Assembly (NCBI GenBank): GCA_051532055.1
Contig: JAOPTX010000003.1
Location: 71,356 to 135,355, forward strand
Length of the DNA stretch: 64,000 nucleotides
Origin: Fibrobacterales bacterium
Lineage (GTDB): Bacteria > Fibrobacterota > Fibrobacteria > Fibrobacterales > JAOPTW01
Reading direction: 5' to 3'
A program made the position numbers. Positions 32,001-47,000 of this stretch are shown here, one piece after another; within the stretch, counting starts at the first letter, position 1; the number at the start of each line of letters is the position of its first letter.

Positions 32001-35000
32001 ACTAAAGCAAAAGAGTGTTTGAATTGTGGGTAAGCATATATGCATATACCTGTTTATAAACTGATAATTTTATGTGGATTTTAAGATAGTTTGCCCCGTA
32101 AGTGCTTACTTGTGGTAAACGCTTGGAGTGGTGATCGCTATTTGTGTACTACGGTTATTTTAATGAACAAAGATAATAGAAGCATGTTACCGGTGTTTCT
32201 AAATACTATACCAACCAGAAACTAATGGTTTTTGGTTGGGTGTAGTATCCATAGTAACAGTCTTTTTGCGACTGTAAGATTTTAGACTATCCAGACCAAG
32301 TTCTTTTCCATATCCACTATTCTTAAAGCCACCAAAGGGAACTTCACTCGAAAATGCCCCATAGGTGTTCACCCAGACCGTTCCTACATTTAAGGCTCTT
32401 ATTGCGCGCTGTATATATGCTTGATTATTGGTCCATATTGAAGCGGCGAGGCCATACTCAGAACTATTAGCCAGTGTTATAGCGTTATTAATTGAATTAT
32501 AAGGCGCGGTAATCAGAACGGGCCCAAATACCTCTTCATTCCATATATCCATATCCGATGTTACGTTACTTAATATGGTAGGTGGGAAGAAAGCACCTTT
32601 TGTAGGTATTTCACTCAGTTGGAGTGGGGTTATTCTCACAGCACCTTGGCCAATAGCTTGAGCAACCATTTTTGATACTTTCTCTCTATGGGTTGTACTG
32701 ATGAGTGGCCCCATATCTGTTGTGGGTCGCTCTCCTGAGGCTATTACTAATGCAGAGGCTTTCTGTGCAAGAAGCTCGGTAAATTTTTTGTAGATAGATT
32801 CATGAATGAGAAGACGTGATCCTGCGACACACATCTGCCCTTGGTTCATAAAGATGGTTGTTAAAATGGTGCGAGCAGTGCTTTCTAAGTTACAATCTTC
32901 ACATACAATAGTGGGGGACTTCCCCCCAAGTTCAAGAGTAACGGGTGCAAGATTAATTGCGGTGCTCTCTACAATTGCTCGTCCTGTTTTGGTAGACCCC
33001 GTAAAGGATACTTTAGCGATACCCATATGACCAGTCAGTGTTGGACCGATCTCTTCGCCAATGCCGGTTACTACATTAAGTGCTCCTTTGGGCAGGACTG
33101 TATCACTTAGTTTTTCACACAACGTTAAAAGTGACGCTGAGGTGAGCTCTGATGGTTTCATCACGATAGTATTGCCCGCAGCAAGGGCAGGTGCAATTTT
33201 CCACGCGGCCATTAAGAGTGGATAGTTCCAGGGTACAATCTGTGCAACAACGCCAAGGGGTTCATACTGAGTGTACGTGAAGGTACTGCCGTCTGTAGGG
33301 AATGTCTCACCCTTAAGTGAGAGTACCAGTGATGCATAGGTTCTAAAAACCTTTGCCGCTTCGGGAATATCAATAAGTGATGACTCTTTGATGGGTTTGC
33401 CATTTTCCTGAGTCTCTATTTGCGAGAGTAACCCTGAGTGCTCTTCAATAACTTCAGCAATTTCCCGTAGGATGTCGGCTCTGTCGTGATACGAAAGTGA
33501 CTGCCACTCACCTGAGTAATAGCACTCTTTTGCAGCTGTTATTGCTTTATTGATATCCTCAGGGGTTCCTTGTTGAATAGTCCACAGCAGCGCACCAGTG
33601 GCAGGGTTAATAGAATCAATAGTGTTCTCTGTAGTGCCTGTGCACCACTCGCCACCAATAAAGTGGCCATACTCTTTAGACACGATCAAGCTCCTTTACG
33701 GGAGCAGCTTTCCAGAGTTCAAAGATTCGATAGAAAGGAGCGTACCATTTTGAGAGATCGCCTATATGTCCTTTAATGAGTTTTAGTTTTTTCTGACTGG
33801 TTGCGGCAAAAGGATCGAGCCTTCCATTAAAAACATGAATCCAAATTTCTCGTTTACCCATGTTAATAAAATCGGCATCATCATCATTGGTGATTTTTGT
33901 AAGGACACCTTTATTGAAATGCATGTTGTAGATAGTCCCATCATCAGTGAGTTTAATCGCGTAGCGTGTGGTCAAGTCAGAAGCTTCTCCTAGTGAGAGT
34001 GCTTCAGGGTCATTATTAATGAGGGTCTGTAGTTTTTCAATGTGGGCATCAGTAAAGACCTCATAGCTCTCACTAGGTTTTTCAGGGGCTTCTTCTACTC
34101 GTTTTGTATTTTGGTGCCCAAGGAGGACTGAATTAAGGGTAATCTTGGCTGCTGATTCTGCAGTGTCAGCCAAAGAATATGCCTCAATGAGGGTTTCACC
34201 GGCTGCTACGAGACCATGTTTTTCAAGAAAAACTATGGAGCTCGTTTGAAATGCGTTAAGTAGTGCAGGGATGTCGGTCACCGTTGGACTTTTCTGTGCG
34301 AGCACTGGGGGCTTTCCTAAGATGAGTGATGACTCATAGGTGCTTGACTCAAGTTCTCTGTTGCAGTTTAATAGGGATAATAGTGTAGTGGGATGGAGAT
34401 GGACGACTGCCTTGTAGCTTTCAGTGTTATAGAGCGCAAGATGCATATCGCTTTCAGTAGAGGTTCGTTTGCTGTTTGGTTCAATTAATGAGCCGGTATT
34501 ATCGATAAGAAGTAGGTCATCTTCAGTTATAAAACCAAGTGATGTTTGATGTGCCGTTATTAGAATTTCATTCTCATTAAGGCGACAGGATATATTTCCA
34601 CCCCAACCTGAAGTGAGTCCTTTGGTAAAGGCCATTTTTCCGATCTCTATTATCTGTTCTATACAACGTTGTTTGCTCATTGGCTATTCTCTGAAATAAG
34701 TTGGCTGGTAAGGTTTGGTAACATAATGTCTTTTTCTGGAATAAGGTCGTACTTAAAGGCTATGGTTGTAACGTTTGTAGGTATTATGTCACAATCAAAA
34801 AAGGTTTGGTCAGGAATATTTGACGTATCAATAGGAATGGTATAGGCTGGGATATTTAACTGTTTTGAAAAGAGCAACCCAATGGCACTACCAGGAAGGG
34901 TATTCCATTCAGTATCGGTTTTTTTATGGCCCTGAATATACAGGGCACTTATCTCTCTGTTCTGAAAGAGTGACCCAATCATATTGTCAGTTATGAGAGT

Positions 35001-44000: not shown

Positions 44001-47000
44001 AGCAATCCTCCAGTCTTAAAGCCTGTATCAAAAAGGGTTATTTCTTCTTCTTCACCATAGAGTGTGAGTATCGAATCTATGAGAGATTGTTTTACGAGTG
44101 AGAGGATAGGGAAGTGTTCTAGGAAGAGTGCAACGCACTGTGCTGTTGAGTAGGGGGATAAGTGAAGGTTTTGTTGGTCTTCTTTAGTAATTGGTTTGTT
44201 ATAGTGTAGTTTAATTGCGTAAGAAAAACATCGAGCGAGAATAGCATCATTAGAATTGTAGGATTGGAGGTCCTCACTTTGTAGAGAGAGGCTCAATGCA
44301 TCAGTATCGATAGGGGGCTCTGTCAACGTAAGGGTTTCTATGAGTTGCTTTATTGGGCTCATGGGGTGACTACCCCTGCAGTACATCGCTCTACGATCAT
44401 GGGCAGTTGTGTTAAAGCGTTTGAAACTGTCTCATCAGAGACACAGGTCGAGAGACGAATATATCGTTCAAATCGACTTCCGCCAAATACTGAACCCGGC
44501 ATATACACAAGTGCTGGGTTGCTACTAAAGGCGGCCTCTCGAAAGAGTGCCTCACTCTCAATAGCTTCAGGAAGCTTTGCCCATATATAGAAGGTCCCTT
44601 TGGGTGGAACTACGGTGAAACCGAGCTCTTGCAAGGTTACCGTAAGGGCATCAGTGTATTCGTTATAAAAATAGCAGCTGGTGTCATCCAGTAACCCGAT
44701 TTGAGAGATTACCTTTTGTTGTATTACCGAGGGGTGTACAACTCTACTTCTTATTCTGAGCCGTAGGGCTTCAAGGAGGGTAGAGCACTCAAGGTCACCT
44801 TCATAATGAGGGTTAACGGCAATATATCCAATCCGTTCTCCCGGGATTCTGAGTGATTTTGAGAATGAATCGACTCGTATTGTTTCACTCCAGAGGAGCA
44901 TCATTGAAGGAACCGTTACCGCTGATGGGATAACTCTATCATAGACAGCATCCTCAATGATACTTATTGAGGTACCAGTAGTGAGCTCCATCTCTTTAAG
45001 GAGTTGTGCTAAGTTTTCTAATGAGCTCTCGGAATAAATTGCACCTGTAGGATTGTTGGGAGAATTCAAGAGAATCGCTACACAATCTGCGGTCAATGCA
45101 TTTCGAATGCTGGTACTATTTAAGGAACAGTCATCATTAGTGCTGACTCGTATGACCGTTGCCCCTGCTTGTTCGATGATAGTATCATATTCGACAAAGT
45201 GAGGGGTCAGTACAATCACTTCTGGGGTCGTTTCTCTTTTGGTAGCTCGTTTATTGTCTACAATGGTACTGATGACTGCATCCAATGCGCCTGTAGCGCC
45301 GACAGTCATGATTACTTGTTCTTGAGTAAAGGGTATGGAAAACCGTTTTTGTAAATCCAGAGAGATTCTATCGCTCGCATCACCACTTCCAAAACCTGTT
45401 TGATACAGAAAGCTATTGTGATCAGTCTCGATCATTTGCTTTGTTGTCGCAAGCAATACCTCTCGATAGTATTGTGGTGGTTTTTCTGCGGGGTTTCCGA
45501 GAGATAGGTCAATTACCTTTCCTGGTGCGTTTTTCACCTGAGAAAAAAGGTCGTAAATTGTCTGGTTATTTTTAACCTGATCAAGTGCGCTTTTTATCAT
45601 GTCCCAATTCCTTAAAGCTAACAAAAAGATAGTACAGGTTTGTAATTTGGGACTTATTTGTCATGATATTGGTGTAATGTATGTGTCTTATTTACAGTGC
45701 TACCTCAAATATTTCTTTTGATTAGTGATAACTATTTTGTGCTGATTAGTAAATGCAAGGGTTTCATAAGTTGACATGGCTTCATTTGTGATTTCAGTTC
45801 GTGCTGCACTGCGATTCGAGGGTTGATAAATTAATTGAAATGCGCTTGATATCCTTAATTATTTGGGCATTATGTGCAATGTATCTGTTATAATTATGTC
45901 TAGGCCTTTTAAAATATTTGACTACCATTCTATGTTGCAAACCACTCTATCTTCAGGACTTATAAAAATGATTGCACTGCTGCTATTAATTGCTGGTGTA
46001 TCAGTGAGTAATGCCAATTTCCGTGTGTTATATGTCAGTGCCTATCATCCTGGTTTTTCAACCTTTGATGATCAGGTCCAAGGTATTAAGGAGGGTTTAG
46101 GCGACCTGAACGTTTCCCTTGATGTTGAATTTATGGATACTAAACGATTACCGTATACTGCAAATACGGACCTTTTTAGAGAGTATTTAGGGTACAAGCT
46201 TTCGGTTGTATCTCCATATGATCTTATTATAGTGGGTGATGATAATGCTCTCACTTTTGCACTTACAGAAATCGACGGATTATTTGCATATAAACCGATT
46301 GTATTTCTTGGCGTTAATAATGTAACTCAAGCAAGAAAAATGGATGGTCAGCCAAGGATTACTGGAGTAATTGAAGCGGTATCTATACAGGGAACTATAG
46401 AAGTAATGCAAAGGATGATTCCAGAGGCTGATACTATTGTTGCCCTCGTTGATAACATGCCCAGTGGTCAGGGAGATCTTGTAACGTATTATAATCAGGC
46501 AGCTGCATTTAAAGATGTAACCTTTACTGATATTAACCTTTCGGATTATACCTGGTCGGATTATCAAGAAATTTTAAAGAATGATACTCAGGGTAAAATG
46601 TATTTATTACTCTCAGCATATAAAGACAGCACTGGGATGAGCGTACAGTTTGATGAGGGTGTTAAACGTATTACCCAATCATTGAATGCCCCACTCTTTC
46701 ATTTATGGAAGCATGGCATAGGCTCTGGTTTGATTGGAGGAAAAGTAGTTGATCATTATTATCAAGGAAAATCTGCTGGGAGCATCGCTGCATCTATTCT
46801 TGAAGGAAAGGATGTAAATACTATTCCAGTGAGTGTAGAAAGTCCCAATGCTTATTGGTTTGATTATACAATACTCTCCAAATATTCTATTGCTATCAAT
46901 AGCGTGCCGAGTGGCGCTATAATTATAAATAAACCGAGTACTTTTTATACTCAAAATAAGGGATTAATTAAAACCGTTATTGGAGTAATAGGGTTTCTGT

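Follow-up and report, generated by a model that had tools for sequence, protein, structure and literature searches.

The window, a 64,000-nucleotide stretch of a marine Fibrobacterales genome, contains an array of twelve co-directional open reading frames (ORFs) on the minus strand (32199-45624). The survey's finding had described twelve genes on one strand, which these ORFs confirm, and all of its Pfam assignments were reproduced by profile search. Its rarity figures also agree with a recount, in which 4 of the order's 157 genomes (source genome included) have a match to the IF-2B family and 2 of the phylum's 296 carry the GRAS family. The tight packing it reported holds for 10 of the 11 junctions, which overlap or span at most 23 bp. 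The exception, on reading the sequence, is a 230-bp AT-rich gap (38470-38699) between the acyl carrier protein (ACP) and phosphorylase genes. The locus is a composite of a six-gene 3' module and a six-gene 5' half, which lie on either side of this gap.

Enzymes of the 3' module

The module includes a DeoD-like (hexameric type) purine nucleoside phosphorylase of a divergent family (37678-38469; PF01048, 115.7 bits). Every NCBIfam model scores below its cut-off with this protein, and the top-scoring models are those of uridine phosphorylases. Assignment as a uridine phosphorylase was rejected because the alignment places an 11-residue gap at a uridine phosphorylase stretch, the site of the uracil-binding Gln and Arg residues, and because the purine Asp of DeoD is kept. 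Arg25, Arg88, Ser91, Met181 and Asp205 of Escherichia coli DeoD are retained, including the Arg residues that bind phosphate. Across the family, Val replaces Glu182, Asp replaces Glu180 and Gln replaces His5. Because the Glu that binds ribose in DeoD has thus been exchanged for Val, the sugar may not be plain ribose.

The adjacent gene (36726-37727; PF01008, 181.8 bits) encodes an MtnA-like aldose-1-phosphate/ketose-1-phosphate isomerase of the IF-2B family, a divergent paralogue. It falls below the MtnA cut-offs (NF004326, 226.2 versus 271 bits; a second model, 202 versus 279) and clears only that of the broad TIGR00524 subfamily (189.4 versus 185.85). Cys158 is fully conserved and Asp210 almost so, and the protein has four deletions when set against the canonical MtnA of the same genome. 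A second ORF (34677-35189), previously listed as a 160-residue partner without a family, is in fact 170 residues long and does have one. It gives a weak IF-2B match, contains ExRP and TDNM motifs that are kept in 14 homologues, and aligns by hhalign (probability 99.0%) with residues 175-313 of the isomerase. Thus, this "half-isomerase" corresponds to a truncated IF-2B C-terminal domain.

Between these two genes lies that of a B12-binding radical SAM enzyme (35213-36712, in an ORF reaching 36772; PF04055, 58.3 bits; PF02310, 28.2 bits), with the motif CPFGCSFC at residue 231. Its start is most likely Met21 of the ORF (~36712), as judged from relatives of ~486 amino acids, 356 of which are detected at E ≤ 1e-20. 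With this start, the overlap with the isomerase gene disappears. The enzyme resembles BchE but is not BchE, as it scores 220 with TIGR02026 versus a cut-off of 481.

The next enzyme is a class II (zinc) aldolase with a C-terminal SCP2 lipid-binding domain (33676-34680, 334 amino acids; PF00596, 111 bits; SCP2, 20.6 bits). The SCP2 score is 36.4 bits in the homologue from one other locus (L012). In an alignment of 26 sequences, the zinc-binding residues His94, His96 and His155 and also Glu76 are invariant, and the SCP2-like extension can be aligned throughout. In the AF2 model (pLDDT 90.9), residues 3-190 match FucA (2fk5, Z 24.8), and residues 206-327 match an SCP2 protein (2cx7, Z 17.1, rmsd 1.9 Å over 120 residues). 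The 5-deoxyribulose-1-phosphate aldolase DrdA (6btd and 6btg) occupies Foldseek ranks 2 and 4, and the predicted fold is closest to those of fuculose-1-phosphate aldolases and DrdA. The last gene of the array (32199-33689; PF00171, 545.7 bits) encodes a 496-residue NAD(P)-dependent aldehyde dehydrogenase that does not reach any NCBIfam equivalog cut-off (best, BADH, 484.7 versus 668.6).

These features bear on which sugar phosphate is processed. An ordinary or C-methylated nucleoside could be degraded, with the radical SAM enzyme modifying the sugar first. Ribose-1-phosphate would then be converted via ribulose-1-phosphate to DHAP and glycolaldehyde, or a 6-deoxy-hexulose-1-phosphate would be cleaved to DHAP and lactaldehyde. 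Consistent with such routes, the aldolase gives comparable scores with models of fuculose-, rhamnulose- or ribulose-1-phosphate aldolases and with those of the MtnB type (NF040649, 77 bits; NF053831, 49.7; TIGR03328, 63.7), loops present in canonical MtnA are absent from the isomerase, and the ribose-binding motif of the phosphorylase is altered. However, the isomerase scores 226 bits with MtnA models versus 141 bits with the ribose-1,5-bisphosphate isomerase model, and the module includes neither a kinase nor a sugar transporter. Moreover, an SCP2 domain and the lipid-type transporters found near the module in other organisms are ill-suited to a small polar aldehyde, and we regard a different sugar phosphate as very improbable.

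Enzymes of the 5' half

The first gene of the array encodes a class I/II PLP aminotransferase of 421 amino acids (44359-45624; PF00155, 107.5 bits). Its top NCBIfam model is NF005305 (270.5 bits versus a cut-off of 376), and its top solved relative is 3ele (128.8 bits). It is followed by a bacterial GRAS-domain protein (43265-44386; PF03514, 60.6 bits versus a cut-off of 27), whose relatives begin at about residue 9 of the 373-residue ORF. The nearest ESM Atlas clusters are all GRAS proteins (score 0.97), although only 277 representative clusters out of 1.84 billion match at E ≤ 1e-3, and identity to the nearest cluster beyond its own is 32%.

The third gene encodes an alpha/beta hydrolase of the FrsA/DLH type (42102-43292; PF06500, 41 bits; PF01738, 32 bits). 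This protein is closest to C-C bond hydrolases, in that its best solved relative is 2,6-dihydroxy-pseudo-oxynicotine hydrolase (2jbw, 87.4 bits), followed by AntI (6hxa) and Ayg1-type proteins. Two acyl-adenylate-forming ligases come next, and these are only 24.6% identical to each other. AMP1 (40543-42105, 520 amino acids; PF00501, 187.6 bits, plus AMP-binding_C) has both a variant P-loop, TSGSTSNPK, and the C-terminal Lys motif. AMP2 (38963-40546, 527 amino acids; PF00501, 139.1 bits; AMP-binding_C, 54.5 bits) carries the motif SSGTTGKPK. The final gene of this half (38700-38963; PF00550, 41.7 bits) encodes an ACP of the PP-binding family with 87 amino acids, whose translation includes the DSL serine within a GIDSLG motif.

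Distribution of the module and its link to the 5' half

The phosphorylase, isomerase, B12-radical SAM enzyme, half-isomerase, aldolase-SCP2 fusion and dehydrogenase form a conserved, horizontally mobile module that is also found in Omnitrophota, Planctomycetota and other metagenome-assembled genomes. No published description of it was found in the literature. We collected 56 genome loci, including the window, that encode a protein at least 33% identical to the radical SAM enzyme. Many of these loci are short; across the 56, the isomerase is the most frequent of the four shunt enzymes (29 loci), followed by the aldolase (28), the phosphorylase (25) and the dehydrogenase (24). A second set, collected by using the aldolase, comprises 36 metagenome loci, each 9 kb or longer. 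In all 36 the dehydrogenase follows the aldolase, and the isomerase (33), phosphorylase (28), half-isomerase (27) and a ligase (23) are frequently present. A radical SAM match occurs in 24 of these loci, at 33-72% identity to the window enzyme in 23 cases and only 23% in the other; in the remaining 12, no radical SAM gene was found within 10 kb. The module travels with one particular family of B12-radical SAM enzymes, not with radical SAM genes in general.

The closest relative outside the genus (L104) has the same gene order as the window's module, with protein identities of 58-72% that reach 72% for the phosphorylase and the radical SAM enzyme. Its MurG, however, is only 35% identical to that of the source genome, and identity does not exceed 39% with any of 121 Fibrobacterota genomes. 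The module thus moves as a block.

Elsewhere, the module usually resides beside its own acyl-AMP ligase, ACP and KS/CLF pair, or beside genes for MMPL, LolA-like or DUF1302 transporters. The flanking ligases form an orthologous group (44-54% identical among themselves) accompanied by an ACP and a pair comprising an active KS and an inactive CLF. Several radical SAM loci that have the KS set, one of which (L005) comes from a complete genome, show no shunt genes in view, so the radical SAM enzyme may belong equally to the polyketide set. The window ligases are not orthologues of this group, as they are only 25-29% identical to its members.

The low ligase identity, together with the gap, raises the question, already allowed for in the survey's finding as two adjacent operons, of whether an acquired six-gene block simply lies on the same strand as a separate upstream pathway for a small molecule. 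The locus in L104 holds the bare six-gene module. Across the 56 genome and 36 metagenome loci, the aminotransferase, GRAS and hydrolase genes accompany the module only in this genus; outside it, none of the upstream genes is matched in the 55 genome loci besides the window or in the 36 metagenome loci. In addition, the same sample yielded an RNA library whose contigs fall in every bin from 35036 to 39004 and nowhere within 39005-42406, but this evidence is weak because carry-over of DNA is possible. However, the genus has one other genome (L002/G238), which has also retained the two halves together with their order unchanged, and the minus (coding) strand of the gap carries no terminator-like site; the gap also gives no Rfam match at E ≤ 1. 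Furthermore, ligase and ACP genes repeatedly adjoin the module elsewhere, and the upstream block supplies both here. We consider two unrelated neighbours unlikely. The 5' half is genus-specific, and its coupling to the 3' module is plausible but unproven.

A proposed pathway and its relation to known salvage

From the gene content, catalytic residues, folds and cross-phylum synteny described above, we infer every substrate, the sequence in which the steps run and how the two halves are coupled. We propose, with a probability of roughly one in two, that a SAM-derived nucleoside produced by the module's radical SAM enzyme is broken down to adenine, DHAP and an aldehyde, and that the aldehyde is oxidized to an acid used by the upstream enzymes. 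The radical SAM enzyme would convert SAM to a 5'-deoxyadenosine-type nucleoside, either plain or with a hydrophobic 5' substituent. The phosphorylase would remove adenine by using phosphate, and the isomerase, perhaps acting jointly with the truncated paralogue, would convert the pentose-1-phosphate to a ketose-1-phosphate. The aldolase would then release DHAP and an aldehyde comprising ribose C4-C5 and any attached group, while its SCP2 domain might hold the hydrophobic tail. After oxidation by the dehydrogenase, the carboxylic acid would, in this genome, most likely be adenylated by AMP1 or AMP2 and transferred to the ACP, and the C-C-hydrolase-like enzyme, the aminotransferase and the methyltransferase-like GRAS protein would most likely process it further.

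The survey's finding had likewise proposed a biosynthetic role. The chain of phosphorylase, isomerase, aldolase and dehydrogenase is indeed intact at its catalytic residues, and the ligase, ACP and KS/CLF genes beside the module elsewhere fit an aldehyde-derived acid loaded on a carrier protein. Judging from these flanking genes, the acid appears to be put to use. Retention of the SCP2 fold and extension, together with the MMPL, LolA-like and DUF1302 genes in several loci, hints at a lipidic product. The proposed feedstock, the general pool of the by-products 5'-methylthioadenosine or 5'-deoxyadenosine, is unlikely, not least because the module is associated with one particular B12-radical SAM family. 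The source genome encodes a canonical MtnA on another contig (438.7 bits versus a cut-off of 271), adjoining a gene for a small class II aldolase, which indicates that the six-gene module is not housekeeping salvage.

The same observations bear on whether the shunt merely clears by-products. If the BchE-like enzyme spends several SAM molecules per turnover and 5'-deoxyadenosine or MTA is inhibitory, the shunt could strip these compounds to adenine, DHAP and acetaldehyde, with the latter becoming acetate and nothing entering a product. The enzymes form the same chain as in the known DHAP shunt, DrdA is among the top structural matches, and L104 manages without a ligase or ACP. Two papers on the DHAP shunt (PMC10986504, PMC12632272) ascribe such a detoxifying role to it. 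However, the genome already has the canonical MtnA and small aldolase, the module is bound to a single radical SAM family, and a ligase, ACP and KS/CLF are conserved beside it in most long loci. Moreover, an SCP2 domain is superfluous for acetaldehyde, yet the extended form (329-404 amino acids) is shared by every one of the 27 aldolase homologues in the genome loci. Neither acetaldehyde nor methylthioacetaldehyde as the aldolase product accounts for the fusion. Thus, simple clearance seems rather unlikely.

The known B12-binding radical SAM enzymes are methylases, oxidases or rearrangers, and we know of none that passes on its own adenosyl product, as would be the case in the pathway we favor. 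The self-contained module would represent a DHAP shunt-like pathway dedicated to one radical SAM enzyme.

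The twelve-gene array and its surroundings

In the ORF listing of the window, twelve consecutive open reading frames run down the minus strand from 45624 to 32199. At ten of the eleven junctions, neighboring genes overlap or lie within 23 bp of each other, whereas an AT-rich gap of 230 bp (38470-38699) separates the genes for the acyl carrier protein (ACP) and the phosphorylase. The 3' half is a six-gene module that encodes a nucleoside phosphorylase, an isomerase, a B12-radical SAM enzyme, a 170-aa protein, an aldolase and an aldehyde dehydrogenase. The 5' half encodes an aminotransferase, a GRAS protein, an alpha/beta hydrolase, two ligases (AMP1 and AMP2) and the ACP. 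All domains named in the survey's finding were reproduced by Pfam and NCBIfam, and the array itself is confirmed as an observation and sharpened. Its interpretation, in which a nucleoside by-product is converted by a shunt into an acid for the carrier protein, is partly supported overall; the anatomy is corrected below for the 170-aa protein and the aldolase.

Downstream of the array, on the same strand, lies the gene for a 2145-aa surface protein, and a gene for a hybrid histidine kinase lies upstream in divergent orientation. The flanks encode Fib_succ_major and DUF4423 domains, which, together with the close relative L002, assign the window to Fibrobacterota. The 2145-aa protein belongs to a series of very large secreted or surface proteins (window 1697-31939) with Fib_succ_major, cadherin-like, ricin-lectin, VWA, CBM_4_9 and InlB B-repeat domains. 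On the other side, a gene for a 1391-aa SNF2-family helicase (48947-53122) adjoins the kinase gene.

A search for riboswitches and other RNA elements with Rfam gave zero matches at E≤1 across 31000-47000. Promoter and terminator scans found no more sites than in shuffled sequence, and the 230-bp gap has no clear promoter or terminator. A single marine sample contains the window sequence, in one DNA run and in one metatranscriptome run. Fourteen contigs of the RNA library, which shares its sample with the DNA run, cover the cluster partially. They overlap in part with the genes for the dehydrogenase, aldolase, radical SAM enzyme, isomerase, phosphorylase and hydrolase and with the GRAS/aminotransferase genes, but leave the two ligase genes uncovered, and the stretches 39005-42406 and 30500-32200 are free of them. 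Because their depth is at most 3.5, versus ~500 in the DNA run, and carry-over of DNA is possible, we take them to show neither expression nor the structure of an operon. In the probable source run, one DNA contig carries two G>A variants at 38978 and 38990 (depth 245 of 710), at the boundary of the ligase and ACP genes. These variants probably reflect strain heterogeneity.

Enzymes of the six-gene module

When aligned to Escherichia coli DeoD, the phosphorylase retains the phosphate-binding Arg residues, Ser91, Met181 and the purine-specific Asp205. Three changes relative to DeoD are family-wide: the ribose-binding Glu182 is replaced by Val, Glu180 by Asp and His5 by Gln. None of the MtnP-type models matches the protein, and matches to HpnG/MqnB-type models are weak (TIGR03468, 34.5 bits against 187; TIGR03664, 20.7 bits). 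Alignment to E. coli uridine phosphorylase leaves an 11-residue gap on the cluster side, at what we take to be the site of that enzyme's uracil-binding Gln/Arg. On the basis of this gap and the retained DeoD purine Asp, we rejected uridine phosphorylase as an identification. Identification of the phosphorylase and radical SAM enzyme as the hopanoid proteins HpnG and HpnJ was also rejected on score (34.5 against 187 and 120 against 578), and a cyclase gene is absent from the window.

The isomerase conserves Cys158 and Asp210, and lacks four loops that are present in the canonical MtnA of the same genome. It falls below the cut-offs of the MtnA models (NF004326, 226.2 against 271; TIGR00512, 202.1 against 279), exceeding only that of the subfamily model TIGR00524 (189.4 against 185.85). 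The 170-aa protein (34677-35189), previously listed as a 160-aa protein without family, proves to be an IF-2B homologue: hhalign matches it to residues 175-313 of the isomerase with 99.0% probability (E 3.2e-18). It aligns with the C-terminal domain only, has no Cys motif, and shares ExRP and TDNM motifs with its homologues (common to 14). At the level of sequence, the profile match and shared motifs identify it as the C-terminal half of an isomerase of the MtnA type, encoded on its own and hereafter called the half-isomerase.

Homologues of the aldolase from genome loci measure 329-404 aa in 27 of 27 cases, rather than ~200 aa. The three zinc-binding His residues (His94, His96 and His155) and catalytic Glu (Glu76) that characterize class II aldolases are invariant in a 26-sequence alignment, and cleavage of a ketose-1-phosphate is predicted. 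In an AlphaFold model (pLDDT 90.9), residues 3-190 resemble fuculose-1-phosphate aldolase (FucA; Z 24.8), and Foldseek ranks 2 and 4 are 6btd and 6btg, the Bacillus 5-deoxyribulose-1-phosphate aldolase DrdA. Residues 206-327 of the model superimpose on the SCP2 protein 2cx7 (Z 17.1, rmsd 1.9 Å, 120 residues). Further SCP2 chains give Z 7-9.5, one of them solved with palmitate, and Pfam detects SCP2 in the homologue from locus L012 (36.4 against a cut-off of 21.3). As modeled, the C-terminal end is thus an SCP2 fold of the lipid-binding type. In FucA, a C-terminal tail shuts over the aldehyde side of the active site. Models of the fuculose, ribulose and MtnB types give the aldolase similar scores. 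These scores, and the altered ribose-binding motif of the phosphorylase, would also fit enzymes that act on another sugar phosphate, a substrate that we consider quite improbable.

The radical SAM enzyme carries CPFGCSFC at residue 231, a CX3CX2C core (PF04055, 58.3 bits). For the N-terminal B12 domain (PF02310), the window protein reaches 28.2 against 32.1, and the homologues of loci L012 and L015 reach 48.8 and 40.1. The enzyme thus combines the N-terminal B12-binding domain and the CX3CX2C core that define class B. Comparison with relatives of ~486 aa suggests that translation probably starts at Met21. Of the named models, that of BchE, the anaerobic Mg-protoporphyrin monomethyl ester cyclase, scores best, and both proteins have an N-terminal B12 domain and CX3CX2C core. 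However, the score of 220 bits is below the equivalog cut-off of 481.35 (TIGR02026), and on this score we rejected BchE as an identification. The hosts are also non-phototrophs, and no chlorophyll genes are nearby. Among solved structures none is close to the enzyme, the best being AprD4 (6fd2, 68 bits).

Distribution of the module and its partners

A word-indexed search with the radical SAM enzyme produced 356 relatives at E≤1e-20, the named ones coming from Fibrobacterales, Deferribacterota, Methanoperedenaceae, Omnitrophota, Nitrospirota and Binatia. A scan with a 16-sequence alignment of the enzyme, limited to one genome per species, gave 461 relatives, and 80 loci were kept. The twelve window proteins were compared with these loci by tblastn, and 56 loci, including the window, match the radical SAM enzyme at 33% identity or more. 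Many of the 56 span only a few kb; the isomerase is found in 29, the aldolase in 28, the phosphorylase in 25, the aldehyde dehydrogenase in 24 and an AMP ligase in 14.

Metagenomes were scanned with an alignment of the aldolase-SCP2 protein, which yielded 530 relatives; genes were counted in those 36 of the kept loci that are 9 kb or longer. The patterns used for searching fell within the SCP2 region, so these loci were selected for the fusion, which is not a finding from this set. The aldehyde dehydrogenase is present in all 36 loci, the isomerase in 33, the phosphorylase in 28 and the half-isomerase in 27. A radical SAM match occurs in 24 (23 at 33-72% identity and one at 23%), and in the other 12 the 10-kb flanks lack a radical SAM gene. 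An AMP ligase accompanies the module in 23 loci, and ketosynthases in 18.

Three architectures recur: the module inside a cluster with an active/inactive ketosynthase (KS/CLF) pair, the module with a ligase and transporters, and the bare module. The second type is found at loci L006, L116, L149 and L152, where the module and ligase are joined by MMPL, LolA-like/DUF1329 and DUF1302 genes. In Omnitrophota and Planctomycetota MAGs, the module lies within a larger conserved set that includes an orthologous AMP ligase, a PanE/ApbA-type reductase, a double TIGR04076 protein, two FabF-like ketosynthases, an ACP, a PF04199 cyclase, SRPBCC polyketide-cyclase-like proteins, and MFS, SDR and Amidohydro_2 proteins. 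At L015, ketosynthase 1 has the active-site Cys and His residues and ketosynthase 2 lacks both; the two are thus a pair of the KS/CLF type.

This conserved cluster of ~19 genes in Omnitrophota, Planctomycetota and related MAGs also holds a small DUF2621/PCP_red-like protein, and its KS partner is Cys-less and CLF-like. It is present in genome loci L012, L015, L018, L020, L024, L027, L030 and L040-L049 and metagenome loci L123-L140, L159, L168 and L171. Our literature search found no paper on it. Another arrangement was seen at L003, L110, L111 and L117, where an FMN reductase gene and a flavin amine-oxidase/phytoene-desaturase-like gene lie between the radical SAM and phosphorylase genes, and LolA-like and DUF1302 genes follow the dehydrogenase.

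The closest relative outside the genus, locus L104 (6191-12491), is a bare six-gene module with the gene order of the window. Its phosphorylase and radical SAM enzyme are 72% identical to those of the window, and its isomerase, aldolase and dehydrogenase 58-59%. It lies directly downstream of Mur-ligase, mraY-like, ftsW and murG genes, and ligase and ACP are absent. However, the L104 MurG is only 35% identical to MurG of the source genome and at most 39% to that of any of 121 Fibrobacterota genomes. This disparity in sequence identity indicates that the module has moved laterally, as a block, between distant lineages. Among 296 Fibrobacterota genomes, an orthologue of the isomerase is found only in the source genome (100%) and the other genome of the genus (88%), the next best match being 36%. 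The GRAS gene has the same two-genome distribution. IF-2B genes of any kind occur in 4 of 157 genomes of the order.

The source genome has a second IF-2B gene, on contig C23 (7058-8747, locus L100), which encodes a canonical MtnA (NF004326, 438.7 against 271; TIGR00512, 395.8 against 279) and adjoins a gene for a 231-aa class II aldolase-family protein. An inosine/guanosine-type phosphorylase is encoded on contig C60. The C23 pair is probably the housekeeping route for MTA and 5'-deoxyadenosine. Thus, the shunt genes of the cluster are an extra, divergent set rather than general salvage.

The 5' half is more restricted. The aminotransferase, GRAS protein and hydrolase have no counterparts in 55 other genome loci or 36 long metagenome loci. 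The best solved relatives of the hydrolase are the C-C bond hydrolases 2jbw (2,6-dihydroxy-pseudo-oxynicotine (DHPON) hydrolase, 87.4 bits), AntI (39.4) and Ayg1 (37.5), yet identity is low and such an activity of the window protein is putative. AntI and Ayg1 shorten polyketides. No ketoacyl-synt domain was detected in any window ORF of at least 110 aa, so the combination of KS and ACP that marks a type II polyketide or fatty acid synthase is lacking in the window. AMP1 and AMP2 are 24.6% identical to each other, both retain the adenylation motifs, and the ACP has the DSL serine. The window ligases share 25-29% identity with module ligases from other phyla, versus 44-54% among the module ligases themselves.

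The GRAS protein scores 60.6 bits on PF03514 (gathering cut-off, 27), and in the Atlas it lies closest to clusters of bacterial GRAS families that come from Bacteroidota and Myxococcota (score 0.97). Four close homologues were found in the word-indexed collection, and these conserve a D-x-G...GG stretch followed by an acidic residue (DTGFKTGG, ACEPS). Among 1.84 billion proteins, 277 representatives are related at E≤1e-3, and identity to anything beyond its own cluster is at most 32%. Bacterial GRAS proteins have reportedly been described by Zhang, Iyer and Aravind in 2012 as Rossmann-fold methyltransferase-like. Pfam and Atlas agree in placing the window protein with them, and SAM binding is putative.

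The two halves might be unrelated operons that happen to be adjacent. The 230-bp gap, the solitary module of L104, the lack of orthology between window and module ligases, and the genus-specific 5' half are all consistent with this explanation. However, the arrangement is the same in both genomes of the genus, and ligase and ACP genes are repeatedly found beside the module elsewhere. We consider separate operons rather unlikely.

Proposed chemistry and comparison with known systems

Phosphorolysis of a purine nucleoside gives a pentose-1-phosphate, which MtnA-type isomerization converts to a ketose-1-phosphate. Cleavage by a zinc aldolase then yields DHAP and an aldehyde that comprises C4-C5 and the 5-substituent, and oxidation of the aldehyde gives an acid. 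We propose that a SAM-derived nucleoside of the 5'-deoxyadenosine type would pass in this way through phosphorylase, isomerase, aldolase and dehydrogenase, and that the acid would be handed to the ligase and ACP. We assign this feedstock and output a probability of about one half. Our commitment to this route stems from a dedicated chain that is tied to one B12-radical SAM family, the lipid-binding fold, and genomic partners that serve acyl activation, carriage and chain extension or are transporters of the lipid type. The output is probably lipid-like or polyketide-linked.

Alternatively, the module might serve only to clear a by-product. The enzyme chain and the bare L104 module are what clearance would predict, but it leaves the SCP2 domain and the flanking ligase, ACP and KS genes without a place, and would be redundant with the canonical MtnA of the source genome. 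Clearance alone is thus an unlikely explanation.

The 5' substituent of the nucleoside may be H (5'-deoxyadenosine, giving acetate), a cobalamin-derived methyl group or a larger hydrophobic group added by radical chemistry. The SCP2 fusion and the transporters point to a hydrophobic group, the case of a bolder proposal that we consider rather unlikely. In this proposal the radical SAM enzyme would do more than release 5'-deoxyadenosine: it would attach the 5'-deoxyadenosyl radical, or else a carbon carried by cobalamin, to a hydrophobic acceptor, and the shunt enzymes would strip off adenine and DHAP, so that R becomes R-CH2-COOH. Ribose C5'-C4' would then end up on the acceptor as a carboxymethyl group. 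Such a homologation would be a SAM-driven, oxygen-free, two-carbon extension feeding type II PKS/FAS or exported lipids in several anaerobic phyla.

If the proposed SAM-nucleoside-to-acid route is correct, the DHAP shunt is more than a means of disposal, and a dedicated, mobile form of it makes an acyl building block from the ribose of SAM under anoxic conditions. A role would also be gained by three oddities: the SCP2-fused class II aldolase, the free-standing MtnA-type half and the BchE-like radical SAM family, which is large and occurs in non-phototrophs. Because uncultured Omnitrophota, Planctomycetota and related MAGs widely carry the module inside conserved KS/CLF clusters, its compact forms in Fibrobacterales and L104 would be small and testable starting points for studying this chemistry.

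The six-gene module, with its SCP2-fused aldolase and half-isomerase, is probably a new version of the DHAP shunt, and it occurs widely among uncultured anaerobes. The known shunt (MtnP or MtnN/MtnK, MtnA and Ald2; DrdK/DrdI/DrdA in Bacillus) handles 5'-deoxyadenosine and MTA. The predicted enzyme logic of the module is that of the known shunt: nucleoside cleavage, aldose-ketose isomerization of a 1-phosphate by an IF-2B protein with Cys and Asp, and class II aldol cleavage to DHAP and an aldehyde. However, the cluster phosphorylase is DeoD-like and not MtnP-like, the isomerase is below MtnA cut-offs and is missing the four loops, and the half-isomerase and SCP2 domain are additional. The aldehyde dehydrogenase and B12-radical SAM genes are fixed members of the module, which occurs in PKS-like or transporter contexts and, in the source genome, alongside a canonical MtnA encoded elsewhere.

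Hopanoid side-chain synthesis (HpnH/HpnG) and the futalosine route (MqnE/MqnB) use radical adenosylation followed by removal of the base. As in the module, a radical SAM gene lies beside a PNP_UDP_1-family gene; in these two routes, ribose carbons of SAM enter a lipid or quinone. These pathways are a precedent for homologation through an adenosyl adduct and are analogous to it in spirit; the trimming route would be new. To our knowledge, HpnH and MqnE have no B12 domain, and we know of no isomerase or aldolase step in either pathway.

In the full-text literature that was searched, which covers few subscription journals, no description of the module or its gene combination was found. A ladderane cluster was rejected as a counterpart, since it has a different gene set and the portion of the report available to us has no phosphorylase or aldolase terms (bioRxiv 10.64898/2026.05.19.726425). 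A precedent for turning a radical SAM by-product into a bioactive molecule instead of discarding it is the synthesis of 7-deoxysedoheptulose from 5-deoxyadenosine in Synechococcus; according to the abstract of that study, promiscuous housekeeping enzymes carry out the route and a dedicated gene cluster is lacking (PMC8102628). The module, in contrast, is a dedicated and conserved cluster.
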